This document shows, one piece after another, positions 14,119 to 32,874 of a stretch of 64,000 bases of DNA (position 1 is its first letter; each line of letters opens with the position of its first letter). Source of the stretch: Planctomycetia bacterium (lineage in GTDB: Bacteria > Planctomycetota > UBA8108 > UBA1146); the NCBI GenBank assembly GCA_012269595.1, contig JAAXJX010000011.1:68184-132183 (forward strand). Direction: 5' to 3'. The notes below the pieces were generated by a model. It saw only the letters and a list, made by a program, of their open reading frames with translations, was not told where the DNA came from and ran no database searches. Position numbers and translations under genes: made by a program.

Positions 14119-15270
14119 TCAGGGAAGGAATTTACCCGGATTTTTCAGCTTTTGGGGCAAATATTCTTCAATGACGTAGTTCAGGCCCCACATCGCCAAA
14201 GCCTGTTGTTCGGCACGGACTCCCATCGACAACAATTGCTCAATCGCCGATTTCCACTGCTTCTTGCTCTTGAAGAAGGGGTCATTCTTGAGGGCGTCCT
14301 TGGCACGCTTGATATCGACATCCTTCAAGGGGTGGGTCGGAAGTTCGTAGTCGATGATGTCCTGGGGAGTCACTCCCAGATAGGTGGCATTGGGAACACA
14401 GAAGAAGCGATTGATGTGCGCGGCGTTACCCGATCCGACCTTCAAGGTTCGATAAATGTTGGAGATCCCGTAGGGATCGCAATCGACGAAGGCGTAAACC
14501 GGAATCTTGGCCTGTTCGCTGAGTCGGCGAATGAATCGGCGGGTCGAGCGGGTGGGGACTCCCGCCATATTGACGAGAATGCAATTGGAGGTTTTCCAGA
14601 ACTTGTGACTTTGCAGTCTTTGGAAAACACCTCCGGTTTCGATGGCGAGGATGAACTTGGCGCCGGTTTCAAAACTCAAATGCTCGACGGAAGTGGGAAT
14701 GGAATAGGCGCCACTGCCGAAGCGTGTGCAGTCAATGCGTTCGATCTCTCCGGATTCCAGATCGGGATCGAGGACCACCAGATCCCCAGCCACAGCTCCG
14801 CCATGCTCATCGGGCACAAAGCGCAACTGCTCACGACTGACATCGTCGACTGAGAAGAGCGCCTCGATGTCATCCATGACCGTGTCCGATTCGGTTTGGT
14901 CGTCAAACTTGGCTTCTTCCCAGTTTTTGGATTGGTAATAAACGTCTCGCTTGGTAGCAAAATCGTTGTTGATCACCAGTTCCCGGGAAAGGCCCATCAT
15001 GCGCAGTGTTTGTGCGAATCCCTTGACGGTGTTGACGGTCAGGGTGCGTTCCTTGCGGGCGCGGCCAATTTCGAGGTAACCCTTGCGCTTGTCGTAGGAG
15101 ACGTTGCTGAGACTGCGAACCGGGAAACGCATCAAGGGCTTGCCCTTGCGCTGAATCTTTTTGTAAATGTCATCTGCAGCACTCTCGATGCTGGAGATGG
15201 TCTTCTTGTCTTTTTTGGCGTTTTCCCGGCGGACCTTGTCCATGTATGCCCGGGTGATTTTCTTCGTCAT
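14119..15270 (-). CDS. top6A: DNA topoisomerase VI subunit A (Spo11/Top6A)
   Basis: Catalytic-tyrosine motif KRDVYYQSK in the CAP domain and the Toprim acidic motif AFVDCDPYGISNIYRT. 383 aa, with an AAGGGAG RBS. It starts 10 nt after the top6B stop. Confidence 0.9.
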   Translation of the reverse strand: MTKKITRAYMDKVRRENAKKDKKTISSIESAADDIYKKIQRKGKPLMRFPVRSLSNVSYDKRKGYLEIGRARKERTLTVNTVKGFAQTLRMMGLSRELVINNDFATKRDVYYQSKNWEEAKFDDQTESDTVMDDIEALFSVDDVSREQLRFVPDEHGGAVAGDLVVLDPDLESGEIERIDCTRFGSGAYSIPTSVEHLSFETGAKFILAIETGGVFQRLQSHKFWKTSNCILVNMAGVPTRSTRRFIRRLSEQAKIPVYAFVDCDPYGISNIYRTLKVGSGNAAHINRFFCVPNATYLGVTPQDIIDYELPTHPLKDVDIKRAKDALKNDPFFKSKKQWKSAIEQLLSMGVRAEQQALAMWGLNYVIEEYLPQKLKNPGKFLP

Positions 15271-15280
15271 TCAGTCTCCC

Positions 15281-17119
15281 TTACATCTTCCGGCTTTTTT
15301 CGAGAACATCGGCCAGTTTGGATTCTGCTCCGGTTCTCTGTTTATCGCTCAGCTCCAGAATGTCCTGGAGGGCGATGCCGATCTGGGGAATATACTTTTT
15401 GATGTAATCCTTCTTGCGCTCTGCATCCGCGAGTCGACGTTTCTTGCGCAGGTGGATCGCCAATTTTCGGCCCGCCTCCATGATGGCGAGGCGCATCTCC
15501 TTGAGGATCTCGTCGTATCCGGCGACCGCTTTCTTGCTTTCCGAGGTGAATGGAACCCACACACTCGCAATGTGAACCAGGATCGCCAGTGGACCGGTTG
15601 GCAGTGCTCCCCGTGCCTGTTGGACCTCGTAGTTTTTCCACGGGGTCGAAATGATCGATTGCGTGATGGCGCATGCACCCTGTTCGTATTGCAAGGGAAC
15701 CCGATTGGCGAAGCGGAAAATGCTGGCGAGCTCGTCTCCGGGAAGTTCTCCGCCATAAGCGATCCCCGCCTCTACCTGAAAGGGATTTCCGCGATAGACG
15801 GCAGGTTGACGGGTGACTGTCAGGACCAATTCGGGGTCAAAGTTGCGCCGGAGGGTTTTCGCCATCAAATCTTCTCCGATGGGGGAGAGGCAGTTGGTTG
15901 GCGGCGCCATCATCTTGGTCTGTTCGATGGACTTGTGAAGAATCTTGACATCGGCACTGCTCAGCCTGCGGGGGTGACGATCGGTATCGATGTACTTGCC
16001 CAGTTCTTCGCTTTGCTCACTGACCTTTTTCACCACATTCGGGGTCATTCGACAAAACTCGCTGCACAGGAATCCGCTGACAGTTCTGGAAGAGGTGTCC
16101 TTCATCATTTGCATGAGGATTCCCAGTTCCACTCCGTGTGGATGAGGCAGGATTTCCATGGGGGCTTCCGGAAGTTTCTTTGTCACCCGTTCCCAAATGA
16201 TGGGCGCTTTGTCCACAGGGTTTTTGTACTGGATTTCGACTTGGGGGTTGGCGAGGGAGACCTGTTCCAGGAAAGCATCGATAGAGTGCTTGCCTTTCTT
16301 GTAGGTCCCCTCCAACTCGATATGGATTTCGGTTCCATGGGCCCAATCGACGTCGACTTCCTGCTCTTTTTTGACCACCGGTTGGTTTTTTGCCATGTCG
16401 ATGGCAAGGGTGACCCGGGTGGCGGGTTTTCTTTTGGAGGTTCTGCTGGTGACCACCATCGGTTTACCGGTGGTCAGGTTTCCGTACATGCCTGCAGCAC
16501 TGATCCCGATTCCCTGTTGCCCCCGGGTCTGCTTGCGGGCATGGAACTTGGATCCATAAAGCAGTCGACCAAAAATCTTGGGCAACTGCGCAGGAACGAT
16601 GCCTGGCCCATTATCCCTTACGAGAATGGTGTGTTGTTCCTCGGAGGCCGCCGTGACTTCAACGACAATTGTCGGCAGGTATTCCGCTTCCTCGCAGGCA
16701 TCCAGAGAGTTGTCGACCGCTTCCCTGACGGTAGTCAGGAGAGCTCGCGCCGGGCTGTCAAAACCCAGCAGGTGGCGATTCTTGGCGAAGAACTCACTGA
16801 CGGAGATGTCTTTCTGCTTGGCCGCCAACTGTTCAGCCTTATTGGCAGATGCGAAGTCATCTCCGGAGGTCGCACGAGATTTTTTGGTCTTCTTTTTGGA
16901 TCGGGGAGCGGAGCTCTTGGCGGCTTTGCCCCTGGGGCTTTGACTGAAAAGATCCGCCTGTTCCGGTTTCGATCGGGATCCGGTCTTGCCACCGGAAGAT
17001 CGTTTTTTGGCCGCTTTTTTCGTGGCCTTCTTTTTGGCGACTTTTTTGGCTGCCTTTTTTGTCGTTTTTTTGGTGCTCTTCTTCGCGCTCTTTTTCTTTG
17101 CGCTTTTGGTCGGGGACAA
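15281..17119 (-). CDS. top6B: DNA topoisomerase VI subunit B (GHKL ATPase) with an N-terminal Lys/Ala-rich histone H1-like extension
   Basis: Bergerat-fold N box [16 protein letters not shown]1 box DNGPGI, and downstream transducer-domain regions. The first ~100 aa are [31 protein letters not shown]-type repeats. TTG start preceded by GGAGG. Confidence 0.9.
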
Positions 17120-17225
17120 CCCGCCTCCTCATCCACTCCGCGATGTTCGCGGGCTTTCAACTCTGGCGTGCACGAATCCTAGCCGCTCTTTCCGCAGCAT
17201 CCAGTAACGCTTTGCCGAGAAACGG

Positions 17226-17768
17226 TCAGTCTTCCTCTGCCCAAAAGTCGACTCCGGTTCCCGCCTCGATGGGAGTGGCGAGGGCCACTTTGAGATGGGG
17301 GGGGCGAATATCGAGATGTTCCAGCCTTGAGCGGGGAATCCACTCCAGGTCTTCGGTTGCCTGGACCCCATCGACTCCATGAACAAAGTTCTCACGGGAC
17401 CCCGGCGTAACCTTGCAGCGGTAGATCAGGGCGATCACATGCAGTTCGGGTGGCATCTCGGGAGAAAGGCGTTGGTGTCGGCCCGCGATAAACTCCCGCA
17501 GAAAGGCGGGTTGCAAAGCCTCGATCTCGAGACCGGTCTCTTCTCGTATCTCCCTGCAAAGTGCGGATTCAAGGGTTTCGCCGTGTTCGACATGGCCTCC
17601 CGGCAGGAAATACCAGCATCCATCCTCTGCGGACGAACTGGAGTCCTTTGCCCGCAAAAAGAGGATTTCATCGTCGCGCTCGACGGCAGCCCTGACCGTA
17701 AATCCCGGTTTGCGTTTTCTTGGCTTCTCTGTCACCCATTCCCCCGTCCGAAGGCGATCTAGGCCCAT
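17226..17768 (-). CDS. NUDIX hydrolase
   Basis: Nudix box GGHVEHGETLESALCREIREETGL. Confidence 0.85.
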   Translation of the reverse strand: MGLDRLRTGEWVTEKPRKRKPGFTVRAAVERDDEILFLRAKDSSSSAEDGCWYFLPGGHVEHGETLESALCREIREETGLEIEALQPAFLREFIAGRHQRLSPEMPPELHVIALIYRCKVTPGSRENFVHGVDGVQATEDLEWIPRSRLEHLDIRPPHLKVALATPIEAGTGVDFWAEED

Positions 17769-17858: not shown

Positions 17859-18911
17859 ATGACCGGTTCACGTCTGCGGATATTGATCGCACTGCTTGCC
17901 TTGCTCCCGGCAAGCTTCCTGATCTCCAGTGATCTGGGAGCCCAATCGCCGGAAGAATTGGAGCGCCGCTGGAAAAAGAAGCAGGAGTCCTCCTTTCTCA
18001 AGGCGGTCAAATGGGAGCGCTCCCTCGACTCTGCGGTGGAAAGAGCGCGCAGGGACAATCTGCCCATCGTGGCCTACTTCACCCGATCCTATGCCCCATG
18101 ACCGCCTTGCACCGCTTTGGAGAGGGGTCCTCTCCAGTCCGATTGGTGGAAGGAAATGGCCGGCAAGGATTTTGTGCCCTACGTCAACATCAGTGCTCGA
18201 CTTCAGGACAAGCCTGATCAGGATCTGCTGAGAGAGATCGGAGCACGATCCTTTCCGACCACGGTGGTGATGGACGCAGACGGTCAGGTGATCTTGCGTA
18301 ATGACACGGCGGGAGCTTTCCGACCGAATGCAGAAAACAGGGTTCGTGGTGCGGTGGAGGTCGCCTCCGAGTTGGTCAAAGCGAGGTCCTGGGTCAAAAA
18401 CAGTGAAGAAGGTTCCGCAGATCAGGCCGCAGCCAAGGCGAGCCTGTTGCTGCTGGAATCGATTATGGATCTGCGCAAATCCACGGAAAAGGAACTGAAG
18501 CAGGCGGCCAAAACCGAAGGAGTCGACAAAAAGTTGTTGGCCCGTTTTGAGCGCTGGAATGCCTATCAGCCTGTGAACCGCCTTTTGCAGGAGTATGTCC
18601 GCAAGGTCAGGGCTCTCGATTCCGAGGACAAGGTCGGGCGCGGGAAGTTGTATCTGGATACTTCCCGGGAGATGCTCGAACTGTATCGGGCGGGGACCCG
18701 TCTCAATGATGCCAGAATCAACATCTTTTCCGATTACTGGCGGCTGGTTTTTGATGGGGCGATCACCGCAAAGGACCTCGCTGCGGCTGAAACAGCATTG
18801 ACGACCTACCGCAGGGCCTACGGATCCCGAGCTGATCTCAAACCCCGGATCAATCTCATGAGTTCCAAACTCGCAGCCCTGAAAGAAGAACTGGAAGTGA
18901 GTCAGCCATGA
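17859..18911 (+). CDS. Secreted thioredoxin-fold protein; candidate selenoprotein with in-frame TGA (Sec) at 18099-18101 giving a UPPC redox motif
   Basis: ORF-track entries 17859..18101 and 18117..18911 share one reading frame, separated only by TGA plus 5 sense codons. The read-through product ...LPIVAYFTRSYAP-U-PPCTALE... aligns with the Trx motif ...vvdFyAdWCgpCk... (UXXC in place of CXXC). Downstream a cis-Pro FPTTVVMDADGQV matches the Trx fold. A stem-loop lies about 17 nt after the TGA. Confidence 0.5.
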
Positions 18912-19843
18912 AGTCGAAGGATCAGCCTGTTGAATTGATCGGTGTGCCACTGGATCACGGTGCAGGGCAGAGAGGGGTCGCCATGGGCCCGACAGCCTTG
19001 AGAATCGCTGGGCTGACCAAGGCATTGGAGCGACTTGAGCTGAATGTGATAGACGGAGGGGATATTGCGGTTCCCATCCCTGAGCTGGAAAAGCCGGGAG
19101 ATCCGAAAGCCCGTTACCTTGAGACGATTTCCCAGACATGCGGTCAACTGAGTGATCGCGTGAAGGGGGCACTGGACAGTGGTCGGTTGCCGCTGGTGCT
19201 GGGAGGGGATCACTCCGTTGCTGTGGGAACCATCAGTGGTGTTGCCAGTCACTACAACAGTCAAAACCCCGGTTCGATTCCAAAAATCGGTGTGCTCTGG
19301 CTGGATGCCCACGCTGACCTGAATACTCCGGACACTTCACCTACAGGTAATGTCCACGGTATGCCCCTTGCCTGTCTTCTTGGGAATGGGCCCCGCGAGT
19401 TGACCGAAGTCGGTTATGCCGGAACCAAGTTGGAACCCCACCGCATCGTGCAGGTCGGGCTCCGCGATCTGGATCCTGGGGAACGTCGGAATATCCGCGA
19501 AAACAACATTCGTGCCTACACGATGGAAGACGTTGACCGCAGGGGCTTGCCCGTGGTGTTGGAGGAAGCGATCTCTCATGCTCTTGAGGACTGCGATCAC
19601 CTTCATGTGAGTTTCGACATCGATGTCATCGATCCCAGATTTGCACCGGGTACCGGAACCGCGTTGGAGGGGGGCTTCACCTACCGGGAGGCTCATCTGG
19701 CGATGGAAATGATCGCCGAGACTGGCAAGGTTGGGTCCCTTGAACTGGTAGAGGTCAATCCCGTGCTCGATCATGGCAACAAAACCGCAGAAGTGGGCGT
19801 TGCCATCCTCGCGAGTGCGCTGGGAGAGGAAATCCTCGGATAA
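18908..19843 (+). CDS. Arginase-family ureohydrolase (likely arginase)
   Basis: Mn-binding motifs GGDHSVAVG, DAHADLNTP and SFDIDVIDP. ATGA overlap with the upstream gene. Confidence 0.88.
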   Translation: MKSKDQPVELIGVPLDHGAGQRGVAMGPTALRIAGLTKALERLELNVIDGGDIAVPIPELEKPGDPKARYLETISQTCGQLSDRVKGALDSGRLPLVLGGDHSVAVGTISGVASHYNSQNPGSIPKIGVLWLDAHADLNTPDTSPTGNVHGMPLACLLGNGPRELTEVGYAGTKLEPHRIVQVGLRDLDPGERRNIRENNIRAYTMEDVDRRGLPVVLEEAISHALEDCDHLHVSFDIDVIDPRFAPGTGTALEGGFTYREAHLAMEMIAETGKVGSLELVEVNPVLDHGNKTAEVGVAILASALGEEILG

Positions 19844-19945
19844 ACTCCCTATGGGGCTCTCTGAGGCCCTCTGTTCTCATTGTGGGATTTTTCGCCAACC
19901 TTTATGATGTGCGGCGAACAGAAGTCCCGTCAGACAGGGGGAAAG

Positions 19946-21175
19946 ATGGCGTCAGTTCCTGCAGGCAATGACATCCCGGACAGTTGGCCTCCACCACCAC
20001 CGGATAAACCAGGCAAAAGATCCGGGGGAGGCGGTGGCAAACGAAATTCAGGAGGCGGCGACTTCCAATTGCACCCTATGGCGGTTCCAGGATTTTTGCT
20101 GGCTCTGATTTTGGGGGTCTTCCTCTTTCTGGTGCTCACCGGCAGAGCGGGAATCGTCGATATTTCCGATACGGAAGTCGCGGTGATCGTCAACTACCTG
20201 ACCGGTGAAGAAGAAGTGGTCACCACTCCGGGAGTGACCTTCTTCCTGCCATGGCTCAGCGAGGCGTATGTCATGGACAAATCGCCGAATGAGTTTCAGA
20301 TGACGGGAACCAGAAACATTGATTACAACCATGTCCGTGAATTGTCCGTCAGGGCCTCGGATGGTTCCTCTTTCAAATTCAATGTGATTTCACTTCAGTA
20401 CCAGTTGATCCCCTCCGAAGCAGCGAGGGTATTACAGGACAGTGGGCCCGGTGAAGCCTTCAAGCGTAACTGGGTCAGGGCCTTCGCAAGGTCGGTCCTT
20501 CGTGACGAGTTCGGTCGCTACTCTTCCGAGGATATTGCCGACCCGAGCAACTACACCACCGCGACGAATCAATCCAAGAATCGCCTGAATGAATATCTCA
20601 GGGATCACGGCATCGAGATTCTGCAGATCATCACTCCGAAACCCAGTTTTGATATCAAGGTCGAGAATGCCATCGAGGATCGCAAAAACGCCAACCAGGA
20701 GGTGGAGCGACTGCGCATCGAGCAGGCCAAACTGATCAATGAGCTGGAGCGCAAGCTCGCGGAAACAGAGCGAACCAAGGCCTCCGAATATGAACAGGCT
20801 TTGGGAAAACTCGAAGCAGACAAGATCAATGCGGAAAAGGATCGGGTCCAGATCGAGAAATCGGCAGACGCCTACAAGATCACCCAGATCAACGCAGGCA
20901 AGGCAGAAGAGGCTCGCAAGACTCAGGAAGCACGGGCTCTGGAAAACAGTGCCCGCAAGGAAGCAGAAGGTTTGCTGGCCCGTGTCGCCGCACTGGAGCG
21001 TCAGGGTGAAGTCCTCGTCCGTGAGGAACTCTCCAGGCTCTTCCAGCGTGTGAAATTCAGTGTGGTGCCGTATCGCAGGGATTCCGCACCGGTTCGAGTG
21101 GAGCATTTGCTTCCTCCGGCGGGACAATCCGCAGGGGCTCAGGGGATTCCCGAGTTGAAGGGAGACCGTCGATGA
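19946..21175 (+). CDS. SPFH/band-7 domain protein (HflK-like) with a C-terminal coiled coil
   Basis: TM helix followed by an SPFH core (IVDISDTEVAVIVNYLTGE...TPGVTFFLPW) and a long coiled coil. Start set at the ATG with the GGGGGAAAG RBS; the ORF track starts at 19880. Confidence 0.8.
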   Translation: MASVPAGNDIPDSWPPPPPDKPGKRSGGGGGKRNSGGGDFQLHPMAVPGFLLALILGVFLFLVLTGRAGIVDISDTEVAVIVNYLTGEEEVVTTPGVTFFLPWLSEAYVMDKSPNEFQMTGTRNIDYNHVRELSVRASDGSSFKFNVISLQYQLIPSEAARVLQDSGPGEAFKRNWVRAFARSVLRDEFGRYSSEDIADPSNYTTATNQSKNRLNEYLRDHGIEILQIITPKPSFDIKVENAIEDRKNANQEVERLRIEQAKLINELERKLAETERTKASEYEQALGKLEADKINAEKDRVQIEKSADAYKITQINAGKAEEARKTQEARALENSARKEAEGLLARVAALERQGEVLVREELSRLFQRVKFSVVPYRRDSAPVRVEHLLPPAGQSAGAQGIPELKGDRR

Positions 21176-22275
21176 AGTTTCTCTCCGTAATTCTGTCGAT
21201 TTTGATTGTTGGTTTGTTTCTGCTGACCGCCGTCACCCAGAAAATTCCACCTGCTTCCATCGGTGTCAAACAAGTGGTTTTCGGACCTGGCAAGGGAGTG
21301 GTGCAGGAAGATTTTCGCACCGGGCTGGTTCTTGCCATTCCCAGTTATCATCGTTGGCACCTGTTGCCCCGCCAGACTCATTTCCTGCATTTCGTCAGTG
21401 GTGAGAAGCTGCGAGACAACCGGAATACTTCCCGGGGGATCGAGGATTGGCAGCAGCCCCTCGAGCTTCGTACCAAAGACAACAACAATGTGACCATCGA
21501 TGTTTCATTGACCTATCGAATCGTCGAAGGGTCCGGTTACAAGTTGGTGGAAGAGGGATTGCGTCTTTCTTACGTGGAGCGTGTCCGCTCGCAGGTTCTC
21601 AATGTTTTGCGGACTGAACTTGCGAAGTTGACTTCTGAAGACCTTCAGTTGACGGACAAGCGATCGGTGCAAGCGGCGGAAACCCTCACCGTTCTTCGAT
21701 CGGAACTGGCGAGTTTTCATGTCGAGCCGGAAGACCTGTTGATCCGTGCGGTAAAATTCCTTCCCGACTACGAAAGCAAACTTCAGAACAAACAGCTTTT
21801 GCGTCAGGAATCAAAACTGGAAGAGGCTTTGACCAAACAGGCTGAGGAAGATCAGAAGGTTCAGACCCAGAAGCGCCAGATTGCGGCAGCAGTCCTTGCC
21901 AAGGAGCGGGACTGGGAGAAAAGGATTCAGGAGCAGCGATCGGCATTCGAGGTGGAAATCGCCACGATCTCGTCAGAAGCCCAGCTCTACGACCGCAAAA
22001 CCCGATCTGAGGGCGATGCAGAGAGGGATATCCTGATCGCGGAAGGGGATCTGGCCATCGAAAAGTCGAAGGCCCTGCGCGACGACTTGCGAAATCAGGC
22101 TCTCGATACCACCGGGGGCCGAATCCTGCTCGCACTGGAAGCGGTCAAGAATCTGGAGATCCCGGAAGTCATTCTCAACAGTGATGATCCCTCGGTTCCG
22201 ATGCTTCTCGATATGAGTCGCATGACGAGGCTGTTGGTCGGGGAATCTCCGCCACCGCCGTCATTGACAGATTAG
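21172..22275 (+). CDS. SPFH/band-7 domain protein (HflC-like)
   Basis: N-terminal TM helix, SPFH domain and coiled coil. ATGA overlap with the upstream SPFH gene, the typical HflK/HflC-like pairing. Confidence 0.8.
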   Translation: MKFLSVILSILIVGLFLLTAVTQKIPPASIGVKQVVFGPGKGVVQEDFRTGLVLAIPSYHRWHLLPRQTHFLHFVSGEKLRDNRNTSRGIEDWQQPLELRTKDNNNVTIDVSLTYRIVEGSGYKLVEEGLRLSYVERVRSQVLNVLRTELAKLTSEDLQLTDKRSVQAAETLTVLRSELASFHVEPEDLLIRAVKFLPDYESKLQNKQLLRQESKLEEALTKQAEEDQKVQTQKRQIAAAVLAKERDWEKRIQEQRSAFEVEIATISSEAQLYDRKTRSEGDAERDILIAEGDLAIEKSKALRDDLRNQALDTTGGRILLALEAVKNLEIPEVILNSDDPSVPMLLDMSRMTRLLVGESPPPPSLTD

Positions 22276-25160: not shown

Positions 25161-26372
25161 TCAGCCCCTGCGAATCACGTCGAGCGGTTTGGCCCCGCGG
25201 GAAACCTCAGATCTGCCTTTCAGACCGAACCATTTCTGTTCAATGGTGGCATAGAGGCGGCGGTAGTCGGTGGTGTGGATCAGGTCATCCCTGACCAATT
25301 TCCCGAGATCAGGCTGTCTGCCGGAGAAGCCTCCCTTGATATTGCCACCGAGCAACAAGTGTGGGGCGGCGGTGCCGTGGTCGGTTCCCTCACTGCCATT
25401 CTCTCTGGCACGGCGTCCAAACTCCGAGTAGGTGCTGATCAGGGTGCGATCCCATTTACCGGTGGCGATCAGTGCCTTGCGCAGGGCTGCCAAACCATCC
25501 GCCAACTCTGTCAACAGACGGGAGTGGCGATTGAGTTGGTTGTTATGCGTGTCAAAGCCGCCGATGGAGATCTTGATGACTGGGCAGGGAACTCCGGAGG
25601 TGACCATCTCTGCGGCAATCTTGCAGCGTTGGCCAAACCGGGTGCCGGGGAACCGGACTCCGTGATCCGGTGAAGCCTGAATCTTTTCTTCGATGATCCC
25701 TGCCGCTTTTTTGATGTCATCCTGAACATCGAGAAGGTGCTCCAGTGCCTTGCGAGCATCCGTACCGCGAGCGACTTCCGGAACTGCACGGGCCTGGCGT
25801 GAAAATTTTTCGGGGTCATCCATGTTGATCACTCGCAAGCCGGTTCCGTACAGAGGGCCAGCGTCACCTCCACCGATGATGATTCCTTCGGCGGCACGCT
25901 CCGGATCGGGCTGAGCCTTGAGCATTCTCGTCAGCCAGCCTTCCTGCAATTCCTCGTCGCTGTCGGAACCGGTTTCCCAGATTTCGATGGACCGGAAGTG
26001 AGACCGATTGGGATCCGGGTAGCCGAGGCCGAGTATCCAGTTGGCTTCCTCAGCCTCCCATGCCTCTGTCAGCGGTTTCAGGGAAGAATGCATTCCCTGT
26101 TTAGAATCCAACTCGATGATCTGGTTCTTTTTCAAGCCGATACGGGGTCTCAGTTCCTGATAACGCTCATCACGGAGGGGGATCACGGTATTCAAACCGT
26201 CATTTCCTCCCTGAAGCTCCACGAGTATCAGAGTCCGTTCGCGTAATCCGGGTGCGACCTTCAACTGCTTCTGTTGCGGGTCGTCAAATGCCCAGGCTTC
26301 CACTCCGGGAACCAGCCATGGAAGGCATGCTCCTCCGCTGAGATGAAGAAAGGTTCTGCGATCAAATTCCAT
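25161..26372 (-). CDS. DUF1501 domain protein (sulfatase-like, Tat signal)
   Basis: Twin-arginine signal MEFDRRTFLHLSGGA and a conserved DUF1501 core (...ISIGGFDTHNNQ...). Downstream partner of DUF1800. Confidence 0.9.
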   Translation of the reverse strand: MEFDRRTFLHLSGGACLPWLVPGVEAWAFDDPQQKQLKVAPGLRERTLILVELQGGNDGLNTVIPLRDERYQELRPRIGLKKNQIIELDSKQGMHSSLKPLTEAWEAEEANWILGLGYPDPNRSHFRSIEIWETGSDSDEELQEGWLTRMLKAQPDPERAAEGIIIGGGDAGPLYGTGLRVINMDDPEKFSRQARAVPEVARGTDARKALEHLLDVQDDIKKAAGIIEEKIQASPDHGVRFPGTRFGQRCKIAAEMVTSGVPCPVIKISIGGFDTHNNQLNRHSRLLTELADGLAALRKALIATGKWDRTLISTYSEFGRRARENGSEGTDHGTAAPHLLLGGNIKGGFSGRQPDLGKLVRDDLIHTTDYRRLYATIEQKWFGLKGRSEVSRGAKPLDVIRRG

Positions 26373-26378
26373 GGGATC

Positions 26379-27998
26379 TCATTTCAGCTGATAGGTCGGG
26401 TCGAGAATCAGTTCCTGCAGGCGTCCAAAACCGGTATCGCTCTGATCGGCATCCGTCACCGGTTGAAAAGGCAACCACGAAAGGGTCCATGCTTCTTCGT
26501 TCATCGATTTACCGTCGATGAATTGCTGGTACAGCTTTTCAACAGACTGTGCTGCAACTGGGCGATAACGGCGAATCTGTCGCCGGTTCAATCGCCTGGT
26601 CGCCCTGTTTCCTGCTGGATTCATTTCCGGTTTCATGTCCGGTGACATCTCCGGATCCATTTCCGGGTTCATTTCTGGATCCATCTCGGGTGTTTTTTCG
26701 GGATTCATCCCGGACTTGCCGACATTGGCAGAGCCTTCCCGCTTTTGCCACGTGGAAAAAATCATGGCTGTGGGGACGGCATCCTGAAGAAACTTTCGTC
26801 TCTCCAGCAAAGACGTCGTATCGATCCATGCAGTTCCACCGGGCCACCCAGCCACATTTGGCGGGTCGAAGAGAACCTGTCCCATCGCTTGAAGATTGCG
26901 GTTGAGCTGCAGCCCTGGAATCTCGCTGATTTCCAATCTTCGCAGAGAGCCCATCACCAGATCGACCGGGCTTTTGACCAGCGCTCCCCGATATTCTGAT
27001 GACCAGAATTGATCTGATTTGAAGACGTGTGACAGGAATGCTTTCAAATCCCAATCGGATCGGCGCAGCACCTTGCCCCACTTTTTGATCACATCCTGAT
27101 CGGGGGTGGGTGAGACGAATTCGAGCCAGAACCTGCGTGCAATCCACTCACCACAAGCGGGATGCTTGAGGACCAGATTGACGACGTCCAGCCCATCGAG
27201 GCGGCCTCTTTTACCCAGGACGGTTTTGACGGAAGAATCATGGAGACGGGAGACTTTGCGAACCTGACCCTGACCCTGGACTCGATATCCGGTAAAGGCA
27301 CGGGCGGCTTCCTTGACGTCCCGTTCTGTGTAATGACCTTCTCCAAGACTGAAGAGTTCGAAGAGTTCCCGGGCAAAGTTCTCATTGGGTTTGCCCTTTT
27401 TGCTCTGTTGGGTGTTGAGATAGATGGCCATGGCGTTGTCCATGGAAACAGCTCTCAAGAGATCAGCGAAGTTGTCGCTTCCATTTTTACGGAAGAGCTG
27501 ATTTTGAGCGAGCATTGCGTGCGGTGATCTGACGGTCCGCATTTCTGAAGTGAAATGCCCATGCCACATCAATACCAGGCGTTCAGTCAGGGGCGATGAA
27601 GTGGTCAGGATTTCCTGTGCCCACCAGGATCGGGCTTCCTGTTGCCAACCTCTTTGCGTTCTACCGAATGCTTGCCTGTCCTCCAGCCGAAGATCCCGAA
27701 TCTCCTGAAACGATAATCCGGTCCATTCGGGAAGGGGGGTTTGTGCTTCGGTTTCCAAGGTGCTGACCAGTTGATCGACGGCTTGATCTCTGGTCAGGGA
27801 AGCGTAGTTCTCCAGCGTTTGATGGGGGGCTCCGAAGCAGGTTCGATCGAGGAGGTGTCTCGCGTCGGCGATCCCCATCCCTTTTGGGGAATCGGTTCGA
27901 TCAACTTTTGCCTGTTGAGCGGTCGAAGGAGAATCGATGACCGGCTGAACAGCGATAAGGCTGCCAACGATGATCAGAAGGCCGGGAAGTGGACTCAT
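26379..27998 (-). CDS. DUF1800 domain protein
   Basis: Signal peptide and DUF1800 core (RHLLDRTCFGA...). Start moved to the ATG with a GGAGAG RBS; the ORF track extends to 28055. Contains an internal PEM(N/D) tandem repeat. Confidence 0.85.
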   Translation of the reverse strand: MSPLPGLLIIVGSLIAVQPVIDSPSTAQQAKVDRTDSPKGMGIADARHLLDRTCFGAPHQTLENYASLTRDQAVDQLVSTLETEAQTPLPEWTGLSFQEIRDLRLEDRQAFGRTQRGWQQEARSWWAQEILTTSSPLTERLVLMWHGHFTSEMRTVRSPHAMLAQNQLFRKNGSDNFADLLRAVSMDNAMAIYLNTQQSKKGKPNENFARELFELFSLGEGHYTERDVKEAARAFTGYRVQGQGQVRKVSRLHDSSVKTVLGKRGRLDGLDVVNLVLKHPACGEWIARRFWLEFVSPTPDQDVIKKWGKVLRRSDWDLKAFLSHVFKSDQFWSSEYRGALVKSPVDLVMGSLRRLEISEIPGLQLNRNLQAMGQVLFDPPNVAGWPGGTAWIDTTSLLERRKFLQDAVPTAMIFSTWQKREGSANVGKSGMNPEKTPEMDPEMNPEMDPEMSPDMKPEMNPAGNRATRRLNRRQIRRYRPVAAQSVEKLYQQFIDGKSMNEEAWTLSWLPFQPVTDADQSDTGFGRLQELILDPTYQLK

Positions 27999-28112
27999 GG
28001 TGTCTCTCCAATTGATCGTATCGGGCCTCAAAAGAACCGAAGCCGTCAGGGTCACAAAAGAATAACACCGAATCTGCTAAATGGTTGCACCTAATGATTA
28101 CCGCAGGGTGAC

Positions 28113-29483: not shown

Positions 29484-32400
29484 CTAAAAAGTGGCCCTTG
29501 GGGCAGGGGGAAGGTCTTCCAGAAGCCGTTCGATGGCCATGTCCAGCTGGAAATCCCAGTGGTTTTCCTCTGCTTCCGGGGTGGAAGGAACCAGGAGGTC
29601 GGGGATCGCTCCATTCAGATCCATGTCGAGCCCTCCTGGAATGGTGTACCAACCGCGGAAGGGAACCCGAATACTGCTGCCGTCGATCAGGGTAGAGCTG
29701 CCGGTACTGATCACGCTTCCCGATGTGGGCATGCCGATCAGGGGGCCGCGTTTGAGGTTTTTGATGGCGTGGGAGAAGATTTCGGCATTGCTGTAGGAGT
29801 TTTCATTGCACAGGACCGCAATCGGTTTTGTCCACGAGGGAGCAGCGAGGCGATCATTGGGATAACCCAGGCCGCCGGCACGGGGTTGAGTCAACGCATG
29901 GGGTTGCCGGGTCAGGGAGACGAGCAAGCGGTCGGTAGTCCATCCACCGCCATTTTCACGCACATCAATGATCAGGCCTTCCCGATCGTGGCCCGCTTCG
30001 TAGAGCTGCACTGCAAAGCGGTCGAGGCTGGTCTGGTCCATGCTTCGAATGTGAAGGTATCCGAGTCGTCCGGCGGACTCCCTGTGGACCTGCTGACGAC
30101 ATTCCTCGAGCCAATGATCGTAGAGCCTGCTGCGCAGAACGTTGTTGGAGATGGGACGAAGAATCACTTCGAAGGCTTCTCCGTCGCGTTCCAATTCGAA
30201 TGCCACCCGCTTGCCGACTTTGCCGTTGAGCGGGATGGAGGTGTTGCTGCCGAGAGTCAGAGGCGATCCGTCGATGGCAAGGATGAGATCACCGGGTTGG
30301 ACGTCGACCGCTTCGTCCGCAGCCGGGGTTCCCGGAACGATCTGTCCGACCTGGTATCGCCCTGAATCGGAATCCCTTTCCCAGCGCCAGCCGGGAACTC
30401 CCGTGGCACGGATTGACCGGGACCATTTTCCGGCAGCCGAGAATCGCTGATGGGAGGAGTTCAACTCACCAATCATGCGGTTGATGATCCACTCGAATTC
30501 GCTGCGGTGGCGCCTTTGTACCGCGTAAGGGCGGTAGAGTTCTCCGATGGCGTCCCAATCCAGTCCCTTGAGATCGATGTCATAGAAGCGATCCCGCATC
30601 GTTGCCCAGGCCTCATCAAAAACTGCGCCCTGTCGCTCCTGTTGATCGACGGTGAATTTGCTGGAAATCGGCAGGCTGGTGCTGGATCCGCTTTCACTGA
30701 TGAGATTGGGAACCCCGGAAGCCAGTCGCAGATATTTCTTCGATTTCGCAATCCAGGGACCGAAGGGATCCCGTCCGCTGGTGACCTTTTTGGCTGAGGA
30801 TCTGGCAGTCGTGTCGACGCTGTATACGGCAGAGGAAGACTCATGGCTCGAAACAAAAAAGATCTTCTTCGATTTTGATCCCCAGGCGGGCCCACGCACT
30901 CCGGAATCAGAGCTGAAAGCCCGGGTGAAGCGATCGCGGATTCCCTTCAGATCGATTTTGACTTCCGGAGCTTTTTTGGTGGAGTCCTCTTTTTCATTCT
31001 TGGACCCGTTTTTTTCCTTCTTCCCATCTTCCGATTTTTCCTGGGGAGGAAGGGGGTCGCTGGCGAGCTCCCGATCCTCCGCTCCGGGTTGGTCATCTGC
31101 TTCCGTCAGCCACAACCACCAGAGGTCACCACCGGATTCATCTCTTTGTGAGATAAAGGCCAGCTTCTTTCCGTCTGGACTCCAGCGGGGACTGCGGTCG
31201 GGGCGAGGGTTGGCGGTCAAATTGAAGGGGGCACGGGTGCCATCGACGGGGACGAGCCAGATGTCCCGGTTGAAATTGTTGTCCTGGGTCGAAAAGGCGA
31301 TCCAGCGACTGTCCGGGGACCACTCAAAGCTGGGAGGTGACCAGCCGGTGTGAAGAACCCGTGAATCACTGCCATCCAGATTTTGAATGGCGAGGTCACC
31401 GTCTCCCAGAACGAAGGCCAGCAGTTTGCCATCGGGAGATATCTGCGGATACCTGCGGCGGTCGCCAGATCCGGGGAAAGGCGTGACTTCAGTAGAACGA
31501 CAGCGATCCAATCGGGGTTCACCCTCTTCAGTGCTTTTCAACGTGTAGAGATTTTCTGTTCCTCCTCGACGACTGACGAAGAGCAGATTCTGAACCGATT
31601 GTCCTTCTTCCAAAGGAAGCCAGACCGGATTCGTGTCTTTGGCAGGGTGGTGCGTCACACGATTGACGGAGAGGCCCTTTTTGACCCTGCGCACCAGAAT
31701 GTCACCTTCACTGCCCACCGCCAGCATTTTGCCGTCAGCGGAGATGGAGGCACTGGTGGCGCGGTTGTAGGAGAGGTCTTGCAACCCGAGAACAGCCAGA
31801 TCTTCGAGGGCATACCAGGACACCTTTTTCAACTCTCCTGTTTTTCTGTGAAGGTGCCACGCGTTCATCTCTGACTCGAAGAAGATGTGTTGTCCATCAC
31901 GGGAAATACTGGGGGACCGCACCGAATCGGATTCGATATTGGTCCAGACCTTTTCAAAGTTCCCAGAGAGATCCCGCTCGACCAATTGACCGCGACCGTC
32001 GATGGTTTTGACCATGAGAAAGTGATCGTCGTCGATCCAGACCGGAGACCGATGGTCCTTGTAGGTCGGGGTCAACTGTGTCCATTCCTGACTGGTCAAA
32101 TCGTAGAGCCAGATCTGGCTCGCCATCGATCCTTCATAGCCTTGGCGGGTGACGCCTGTTCCCCAACGGGTTGCAAGGATCTTCTTTCCCGAAGGAGAAA
32201 GTCGTGCGTTGGCTGCGGCAGCCAGAGTGAGGCGCTGTGGTTCATGAATTATGGAATCGTCTCCGGGGAGAGTCAGGGAGTAGAGGCGAGTTCCACCGCG
32301 CTTCCAGGTATCAACACGATCACTGGAAATCAGGATCGACTTTTCATCCGGATACCAGTCGCAAGCGCGATCGGTTCCACTCCACCAGGTCAGCCTTTGT

Positions 32401-32765
32401 GGTTGGCCGCCATCCACGGAGATCTTCCAGACATCGTCACTCCCCTCCCTTCGGGAGGAGAAGAGCAGTTGTGTGCCACTTCGATTCCAACGGACACCAG
32501 AATCCATCGCCGGGTGATCCGTCAATCTCTTGGCTTGGCCACCGTTCGTCGGGGCAAGCCAAAGGTCCCCTTCCCACAGGAAAGCGACCTGATCTCCATT
32601 AGGAGAGATTTGTGGGAAAAGGGGCCACCGCATCGGTTCGCCCCCGCTGGGAGCGAGGGTGGCCTGGGAGGCGGAAGAGGCTTCGATCGGATTCAGGAAG
32701 GTGAGTAGCCAGCAAGTGGTCAACACGGTGAGCAGTGGCAATGTTGAAGGCCGTAGTATCTTCAA
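29484..32765 (-). CDS. Tricorn protease homologue (TolB-like beta-propellers, PDZ and a C-terminal S41 peptidase domain)
   Basis: 1090+ aa. N-terminal propeller repeats (FPQISPNGDQVAF, RWNRSGTQLLFSS...) and a C-terminal S41 core (LIIDVRENGGGW ... NENSYSNAEIFSHAIKNLKRGPLIGMPTSGS). Start moved to the TTG with an AGAGGA RBS, which gives a canonical signal peptide MKILRPSTLPLLTVLTTCWLLTFLNPIEA. The ORF track extends to 32858. Confidence 0.85.
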   Translation of the reverse strand: MKILRPSTLPLLTVLTTCWLLTFLNPIEASSASQATLAPSGGEPMRWPLFPQISPNGDQVAFLWEGDLWLAPTNGGQAKRLTDHPAMDSGVRWNRSGTQLLFSSRREGSDDVWKISVDGGQPQRLTWWSGTDRACDWYPDEKSILISSDRVDTWKRGGTRLYSLTLPGDDSIIHEPQRLTLAAAANARLSPSGKKILATRWGTGVTRQGYEGSMASQIWLYDLTSQEWTQLTPTYKDHRSPVWIDDDHFLMVKTIDGRGQLVERDLSGNFEKVWTNIESDSVRSPSISRDGQHIFFESEMNAWHLHRKTGELKKVSWYALEDLAVLGLQDLSYNRATSASISADGKMLAVGSEGDILVRRVKKGLSVNRVTHHPAKDTNPVWLPLEEGQSVQNLLFVSRRGGTENLYTLKSTEEGEPRLDRCRSTEVTPFPGSGDRRRYPQISPDGKLLAFVLGDGDLAIQNLDGSDSRVLHTGWSPPSFEWSPDSRWIAFSTQDNNFNRDIWLVPVDGTRAPFNLTANPRPDRSPRWSPDGKKLAFISQRDESGGDLWWLWLTEADDQPGAEDRELASDPLPPQEKSEDGKKEKNGSKNEKEDSTKKAPEVKIDLKGIRDRFTRAFSSDSGVRGPAWGSKSKKIFFVSSHESSSAVYSVDTTARSSAKKVTSGRDPFGPWIAKSKKYLRLASGVPNLISESGSSTSLPISSKFTVDQQERQGAVFDEAWATMRDRFYDIDLKGLDWDAIGELYRPYAVQRRHRSEFEWIINRMIGELNSSHQRFSAAGKWSRSIRATGVPGWRWERDSDSGRYQVGQIVPGTPAADEAVDVQPGDLILAIDGSPLTLGSNTSIPLNGKVGKRVAFELERDGEAFEVILRPISNNVLRSRLYDHWLEECRQQVHRESAGRLGYLHIRSMDQTSLDRFAVQLYEAGHDREGLIIDVRENGGGWTTDRLLVSLTRQPHALTQPRAGGLGYPNDRLAAPSWTKPIAVLCNENSYSNAEIFSHAIKNLKRGPLIGMPTSGSVISTGSSTLIDGSSIRVPFRGWYTIPGGLDMDLNGAIPDLLVPSTPEAEENHWDFQLDMAIERLLEDLPPAPRATF

Positions 32766-32874
32766 GGGGGATCCTCTCAGCTGATTCGTGGGTCCAGTCT
32801 GTGGTGAGTTTGGGTTCCGGGCAAGGCCGGACTTGACCTTCCGGGTACGAATGGGCACGCTTTAGGAAACCGAT

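Follow-up and report, generated by a model that had tools for sequence, protein, structure and literature searches.

We observed that a bacterial topoisomerase VI (Topo VI) locus, in a 64,000-nucleotide stretch of DNA from a Planctomycetia bacterium (contig JAAXJX010000011.1; the whole stretch is called the window here, and positions are counted within it), encodes a B subunit (Top6B) with a lysine-rich N-terminal tail. Between the two basic arms of this tail lies a single pentapeptide, QADLF, that resembles the motifs by which proteins dock on the bacterial sliding clamp (the beta-clamp, DnaN). The reading that we favour, with modest confidence and on the basis of sequence comparisons, is that of a bipartite DNA-binding tail combined with a sliding-clamp tether. 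That the arms bind DNA seems quite probable, while for the partner of QADLF we lean towards DnaN. In other genomes the basic array and the motif are found apart from each other. A sequence-only reading of this DNA had described a histone H1-like lysine/alanine-rich tail fused to Top6B. The lysine-rich tail is real: the interval 16820..17119 (minus strand) corresponds to codons 1-100 of the open reading frame (ORF) 15281..17119, the peptide that had been quoted is exact, and the reading frame runs on from the tail into a genuine Top6B (Pfam HATPase_c and Topo-VIb_trans, with an adjacent Top6A). The parts of the tail are the following.

16970..17116, minus strand: basic arm 1, residues 2-50, with 20 lysines, no acidic residues and a net charge of +22 (from composition; AlphaFold2 (AF2) predicted local distance difference test score (pLDDT) about 30-39).
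16946..16960, minus strand: QADLF, residues 54-58, a short linear motif resembling a clamp-binding motif (from conservation, enrichment and the consensus in PMC11139829).
16874..16936, minus strand: basic arm 2, residues 62-82 (from composition; disordered in the AF2 model).
16838..16873, minus strand: linker from tail to core, residues 83-94 (AF2 pLDDT stays below 50 up to residue 92, and the first helix opens at 94).

Residues 1-94 contain 29 lysines, 5 arginines, 15 alanines and 16 serines, giving the tail a net charge of +30 and an isoelectric point of 11.4. Lysine makes up 31% of the tail (and alanine 16%) against 8.1% of the core (binomial P ~2e-10). Much of it is arranged as a strict repeat, a (KKxx)8 array at residues 8-39 (17003..17098, minus strand), to which the 12-nt period repeated 5.7 times at 17003-17073 (Tandem Repeats Finder) corresponds. 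A shorter KKKTKK block follows at residues 74-81, and residues 51-64, which contain QADLF, are non-repetitive. No other stretch of the 64-kb window, in any frame, reaches 16 lysines in 30 residues. We also considered lysine-rich tails as a genome-wide habit and rejected this, as no other ORF in the window carries one. In a single-chain AF2 model built from 60 homologs (mean pLDDT 77), residues 4-92 had a pLDDT below 50 and no secondary structure, and the fold began at the helix of residues 94-104. Over residues 51-60 the pLDDT was about 35, with no secondary structure around QADLF. The tail is predicted by this model to be intrinsically disordered.

QADLF is the only Q..LF in the Top6B protein, and the sole aromatic residue of almost every homologous tail sits in the equivalent Q-x-x-L-F. 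The variants seen in relatives were QADLF, QGGLF, QLSLF, QLDLF, QSDLF and QLSLL, along with a hexapeptide form, QLEVxF. The pattern Q..LF or Q[LIVM].[LIVM].F was present in 37 of 58 non-redundant tails, against 0.04 from composition-preserving shuffles (a control that ignores shared ancestry). The positions left free by this pattern were themselves restricted, since 24 of 30 tails had D or S at position 3 and 18 of the 30 had A or L at position 2, and the four residues after the motif were enriched in acidic residues (0.25 versus 0.07 in the rest of the tail). Among Myxococcota, 64 of 74 non-redundant tails had QL[E/S/D]L[V/L/I/M/F] some 20 residues in from the N-terminus, with leucine at position 2 in 60 of these 64. 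In its generalised form (Q-x-x-L-Φ or QLxVxF) the motif occurred in 104 of the 138 non-redundant Top6B tails of Planctomycetota and Myxococcota, where about one would be expected per shuffled set. As a negative control we used the lysine-rich tails of Top6A, and 0 of 48 non-redundant ones had a Q..L-phi motif. The labelled motif-bearing matches came from Planctomycetota, Myxococcota and Eisenbacteria, most representatives having no taxon label. In one orthologous locus (L001) pairwise protein alignment misplaced the motif owing to the low complexity of the tail, and motif-anchored profiles were used instead.

The codons of the tail were compared with those of two orthologous loci, the closest ortholog (L005) and L002. 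The QADLF codons had 3 synonymous changes with respect to L005 and 3 with respect to L002, and no non-synonymous change. The remaining tail showed 39 non-synonymous and 23 synonymous changes, and the core 33 and 246, respectively. By these comparisons, the tail is a coding segment that evolves fast in sequence and is constrained in composition and at one motif. QADLF is maintained by purifying selection and, with Top6A tails as the control, is a motif of Top6B tails specifically.

A 2024 review defines the clamp-binding motif as Q-phi-x-[L/M]-[F/L] or Q-phi-x-[L/M]-x-[F/L], and notes that Pol III alpha uses QADMF, that the motif of Hda lies in a disordered N-terminus, and that downstream acidic residues aid binding (PMC11139829). 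QADLF fits this definition, with a sub-optimal alanine at position 2 as in QADMF, from which it differs by one change, methionine to leucine. The same five-residue signature is shared by the other beta-clamp motifs, i.e. those of Hda (N-terminal QLSLPL), Pol II/IV/V and MutS (PMC11139829). The resemblance extends beyond the five residues: the Top6B motif, like that of Hda, is in a disordered terminal segment, and the Top6B family has the acidic downstream flank and the coexisting penta- and hexapeptide forms of known clamp motifs. The residues found at the free positions reproduce the Dalrymple clamp consensus, QL[S/D]LF.

When we compared loci from other genomes, the lysine array and the motif behaved as separable modules. 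In L010, Top6B starts MPEGDEQLSLFGEE, with the motif QLSLF on a non-basic tail, and Top6A starts MAKKKAAKKAAPKKTTAKKTTAKKTTAKK, a lysine array on the A subunit. The same split is seen in L008 (motif on Top6B, lysine array on Top6A). L009 has lysine arrays on both subunits, and L004 and L007 have a tail-less Top6B with a lysine-tailed Top6A. The Top6A genes with a lysine array in these loci are the following.

L004, 5761-6996: Top6A with lysine array.
L007, 4001-5236: Top6A with lysine array.
L008, 2363-3628: Top6A with lysine array.
L009, 4001-5227: Top6A with lysine array.
L010, 5710-7029: Top6A with lysine array.

A lysine-rich N-terminal array is in fact found on Top6A throughout a large Planctomycetota clade, so that such a tail is no oddity of this lineage. 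At the window locus the Top6A is plain (compared with the other loci, its N-terminus lacks a lysine array) and the two modules are found joined on Top6B. The array moves between subunits, while the motif, where present, is found only on Top6B. For this reason the comparison argues that the array may serve the holoenzyme generically, by giving it affinity for DNA, and that the motif would have a distinct, position-specific role. The tail-less Top6B of L004 (4103-5761) has a charged-residue-rich insertion, DDKGRIRKVKKKKGAFDTEDLLGNADEP, at approximately residues 395-440 in the transducer region, which the window protein does not have. It can also be mentioned that many Top6A entries (P0298, P0300, P0314 and others) bear the NCBI product name 'DNA topoisomerase IV subunit A', which is misleading for the A subunit of a type IIB enzyme.

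The tail is attached to an ordinary Top6B core. The GHKL domain, the transducer, the N-terminal strap and an adjacent Top6A are all present, establishing the identity of the protein.

15281..17119, minus strand: Top6B, full length including the tail, 612 amino acids, TTG start (from the ORF list, Pfam and a match to PDB 2q2e_B, E=3e-137).
16787..16837, minus strand: conserved N-terminal strap, residues 95-111, aligning to residues 6-22 of Methanosarcina mazei Top6B.
16397..16747, minus strand: GHKL ATPase domain, residues 125-241 (Pfam PF02518/PF13589).
15413..15904, minus strand: transducer domain Topo-VIb_trans, residues 406-569 (PF09239, E=3.8e-58, full profile 1-159).
14119..15270, minus strand: Top6A, 383 amino acids (Pfam TP6A_N, Topo_VI_alpha, TOP6A-Spo11_Toprim).

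The Pfam matches HATPase_c and HATPase_c_3 together span residues 125-253. The protein aligned with 2q2e_B, and in the homolog alignment the N box (E..DN) and the GxxGxG-type residues were invariant, as were A95, Q102, I105 and SEFF of the strap. The Top6A gene starts 10 nt past the Top6B stop codon. The archaeal Top6B proteins of M. mazei (2Q2E) and Saccharolobus shibatae (2ZBK/1MX0) are alike from the strap on, through the strap, GHKL, H2TH and transducer regions, and the alignment with M. mazei covers residues 95-590 of the query. They differ in that their chains open at the strap and have neither the N-terminal tail nor a QxxLF motif: query residue 95 pairs with residue 6 of M. mazei, and query residue 100 with residue 3 of S. 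shibatae. At the other end, M. mazei Top6B runs about 110 residues beyond the end of the alignment, where the query has no counterpart. This extra region of the M. mazei protein has been published as an immunoglobulin-like C-terminal domain. Bacterial Top6B proteins have been described as lacking the archaeal C-terminal domain (Allen and Maxwell 2024, PMC11302465).

We further examined how widely such tails occur. Among the 120 best homologs, the labelled ones were mostly metagenome-assembled genomes of Planctomycetota, and nearly all had a basic N-terminal extension of 20-165 residues preceding the conserved ...MAxxQ[KR][DE]I-SVSEFF strap. In the library clustered at 50% identity, the strap lay within the first 30 residues in 88 of the 114 strap-recognisable proteins. 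The tails go with the bacterial-type strap. A second search, begun from a remote representative, brought in Myxococcota (Anaeromyxobacter, Vulgatibacter), in which the median tail length was 69 residues; in all these searches the taxonomy is that of the labelled matches only. Among the proteins compared, bacterial Top6B typically has such a tail and the characterised archaeal enzymes do not; it is neither universal nor private to the source genome. The idea of a lineage-specific tail therefore stood as far as the archaeal enzymes are concerned, but most bacterial homologs have tails of 20-170 amino acids. The Myxococcota proteins (Anaeromyxobacter, Vulgatibacter, Myxococcales; P0130, P0391-P0509) include motif carriers from cultured organisms. 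Many Top6B representatives (e.g. P0122, P0126, P0128, P0164, P0183) are 1000-1570 amino acids long and match in two or three separate stretches, and these may carry inteins or fusions.

The position of the tail suggests how the two modules might work. The strap swaps onto the GHKL domain of the partner when the ATP gate dimerises and closes (PMC13040014). As the archaeal chains begin at the strap, and the strap sits on the ATP gate, the tail is expected to project from the top of the gate. The two lysine-rich arms, with a net charge of +30 per protomer, would bind DNA non-specifically by electrostatics. Because the tail grows from the strap, which swaps at gate closure, the arms would lie where the transported duplex comes in, at the mouth of the gate. 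In this position they could increase the local affinity for DNA or help to capture the second duplex, as the lysine repeats of Streptomyces TopA might lead one to expect, and they could compensate for the C-terminal domain missing from bacterial Top6B. QADLF, in turn, would dock into the hydrophobic pocket of DnaN, and an A2B2 enzyme would offer two copies of the motif to the two pockets of a clamp dimer. Docking would concentrate Topo VI on freshly replicated DNA, where clamps remain. Topo VI is described in PMC8837201 as a preferential decatenase. Whether bacterial Topo VI, at least in Planctomycetota and Myxococcota, is a sliding-clamp client through the Top6B motif, with a polylysine module separately giving affinity for DNA, is a broader proposal that we regard as evenly balanced.

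Several points weigh against the clamp-tether reading. Alanine at position 2 lowers the affinity of consensus peptides approximately 40-fold (PMC11139829), though QADMF works in Pol III alpha; position 2 is alanine in the source clade and glycine or serine in some relatives. The hexapeptide variant has valine at position 4, and many of the Myxococcota motifs end in valine, isoleucine or methionine rather than the canonical phenylalanine or leucine. The motif is missing from roughly one tail in four and from entire lineages (e.g. L004 and L007), so it must be dispensable for Topo VI as such. The shuffles, as said, take no account of shared ancestry. The 2024 review lists no topoisomerase among the beta-clamp partners (PMC11139829), and the AF2 model has no order at the motif, an observation that is neutral in itself. 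These departures from the canonical motif (Val/Ile/Met at the last position, Ala/Gly at position 2) would fit a motif that docks elsewhere, such as an intramolecular or inter-subunit latch on the GHKL domain (the ATP gate) or on Top6A that regulates closure, or a contact with another partner that organises the chromosome, for instance an SMC/Mks-type complex, ParB or SSB. Such docking would also be in keeping with the origin of the tail at the strap, on the ATP gate, and bacterial topoisomerases with tethers other than the clamp do exist (Topo IV-MukB, Topo III-SSB). Yet the single-chain AF2 model neither docked the motif nor gained confidence at it, and the QL[S/D]LF-like free positions, the penta- and hexapeptide forms and the acidic flank are specifically the pattern of clamp motifs. 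We know of no other bacterial motif with a signature of the QL[S/D]LF type, and we consider docking on another partner rather unlikely. Also unlikely, in our estimate, is a tail that serves as nothing more than a non-specific, H1-like DNA-binding segment or nucleoid tether, in which QADLF would be a spacer or would contribute to association with DNA or the nucleoid, with no dedicated protein partner. The high positive charge and predicted disorder agree with this, as do the precedent of Streptomyces TopA and the occurrence, on Top6A and on certain Top6B proteins (P0056, P0117, P0121), of lysine arrays that lack the motif. A spacer, however, would not retain Q, L and F through synonymous-only change, nor would it recur in 104 of 138 tails of two phyla with flanks that cannot be aligned. 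The motif is also present on non-basic tails (L010, P0052, P0053), and hence is not a by-product of lysine arrays, and Pfam shows no homology of the tail with H1 or Hc1. Non-specific DNA binding, which had been proposed before, is plausible for a polycationic, predicted-disordered segment. The accompanying idea of a nucleoid tether is incomplete, since QADLF, which had been overlooked, points to a specific protein partner as well.

All these readings require that the tail be made as protein, and one could suppose instead that it is an annotation artefact, i.e. that translation begins at an internal TTG (codon 98, 16826..16828) and that the lysine-rich region is an untranslated A-rich leader. 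The features at the start of the gene are the following.

17117..17119, minus strand: TTG start codon, the first start after the upstream stop, conserved in orthologs.
17124..17131, minus strand: initiation context as read from the sequence, an in-frame TGA (17131..17129) overlapping the Shine-Dalgarno sequence GAGGAGG (17130..17124), then CGGG and the TTG.

The in-frame TGA is four codons upstream of the start, and the only in-frame starts ahead of the conserved core are the TTG at 17119 and that of codon 98. The later start is preceded, at a distance of 8 nt, by a weak AAGG; the A-rich stretch is open in each of the three minus-strand frames; and for certain homologs the gene caller has placed the start at the strap methionine (database entries P0043, P0044, P0089 and P0098 begin there). 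As all three frames are open, we dropped openness of the ORF as proof of coding and judged coding from the conserved context of ribosome-binding site and start, the phase of indels and synonymous change. The TTG start with a GGAGG ribosome-binding site, as it had been read, has a context that is conserved in orthologs: TGAGGAGGCGGG-TTG is identical in the orthologous Planctomycetota loci L002 and L005, and GAGGAG..TTG is kept in L001, despite diverged tails. Leu-start proteins are also found among JGI records. In a frame-blind DNA alignment the gaps with respect to L005 were only of 3, 6, 6 and 9 nt, i.e. in phase. At the strap-proximal position L002 reads CTT, and the one other in-frame start of this locus is a GTG inside the tail that lacks a ribosome-binding site. 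QADLF is conserved as amino acids in this frame only, through synonymous changes, and motif and composition are kept at the protein level across phyla that differ in codon usage. On account of the conserved start context (shared by three orthologous genomes), the in-phase indels, the absence of a strap-proximal start in L002 and the selection on the QADLF codons, the tail is almost certainly translated, and a start at codon 98 is highly improbable.

An A-rich segment open in three frames is one in which ORF callers could easily choose wrong frames or starts. A 671-residue ORF on the plus strand (15167..17182), antisense to Top6B, is a shadow ORF. A promoter scan found no sigma-70-like promoter upstream of the start, and terminator-like plus-strand matches near the tail were discarded as the antisense of lysine codons, with no meaning of their own.

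The likeness of the tail to linker histones, with which the sequence-only reading had begun, is one of composition. The tail shares with the C-terminal domain of H1 and with chlamydial Hc1 a Lys/Ala/Ser/Thr-rich composition, disorder and a high isoelectric point, but it has no detectable homology to them and no globular H1 domain. Searched alone, it matched no Pfam family even at E <= 10 (and the full protein at E <= 0.01 had no match on residues 1-94), and for this reason the likeness to H1, Hc1 and planctomycete histone-like proteins is compositional convergence and not homology. A closer parallel is the actinobacterial topoisomerase I, Streptomyces TopA, which also has terminal low-complexity Lys/Ala-rich repeats on a topoisomerase; these stabilise its complex with DNA and give processivity (PMC5714199). 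TopA differs in being a type IA, monomeric enzyme with the tail at the C-terminus and no embedded docking motif, and only composition is shared, without sequence homology. The Top6B tail, unlike that of TopA, is N-terminal and sits on the ATPase subunit of a type IIB enzyme (on the A subunit in other lineages). By analogy, TopA is probably the best functional precedent for the lysine arms.

Other tethers of bacterial decatenases are known from Topo IV, whose ParC subunit binds the hinge of MukB, and from Topo III, which binds SSB. The logic is the same, a protein partner bringing a decatenase to DNA that is being replicated or segregated. These enzymes (type IIA and type IA, respectively) differ in their partners and in using contacts of folded domains or of the SSB tip, with no clamp-type motif. 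We found no description of the tail or of the motif on Topo VI in the searchable literature. Topo VI subunits were co-purified with PCNA in a pull-down of NucS from P. abyssi, which is only an indirect hint.

Topo VI has been well studied in archaea and plants, and bacterial Topo VI is essentially uncharacterised. Decatenases reach replicated DNA by routes that vary from one enzyme to another (Topo IV through MukB, Topo III through SSB), and a conserved clamp-type motif with a movable polylysine module offers a cheaply testable hypothesis of the way in which bacterial Topo VI is targeted and holds DNA. If this is true, a topoisomerase would join the short list of beta-clamp clients, as the first type II topoisomerase recruited through the common docking pocket of the clamp, and a short motif would wire into the bacterial replisome an enzyme family whose characterised members otherwise come from archaea and plants only. 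The Topo VI family, lysine-repeat tails on topoisomerases and clamp-binding motifs were all known already; what appears to be new, as judged from the searchable literature, is the presence of either feature on Topo VI. There is a practical side as well, since gene callers that start at the strap methionine delete the tail, and constructs modelled on the archaeal enzymes would omit it.

Within the 64-kb window we found no dnaN, no other clamp client and no other replication gene. Upstream of Top6B there is a NUDIX gene (17226..17768, minus strand), with an arginase-family gene nearby (18908..19843, plus strand). Arginase and NUDIX genes also adjoin Top6B-Top6A in L010 (954-3639), whose Top6B is 68% identical, and this suggests that the order arginase-NUDIX-Top6B-Top6A is a conserved local synteny in the lineage. 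The window further contains two neighbouring SPFH/Band 7 genes (19880..22275, plus strand), a DUF1501/DUF1800 gene pair (25161..28055, minus strand) and a gene for a tricorn-like S41 protease of 1124 amino acids (29484..32858, minus strand).

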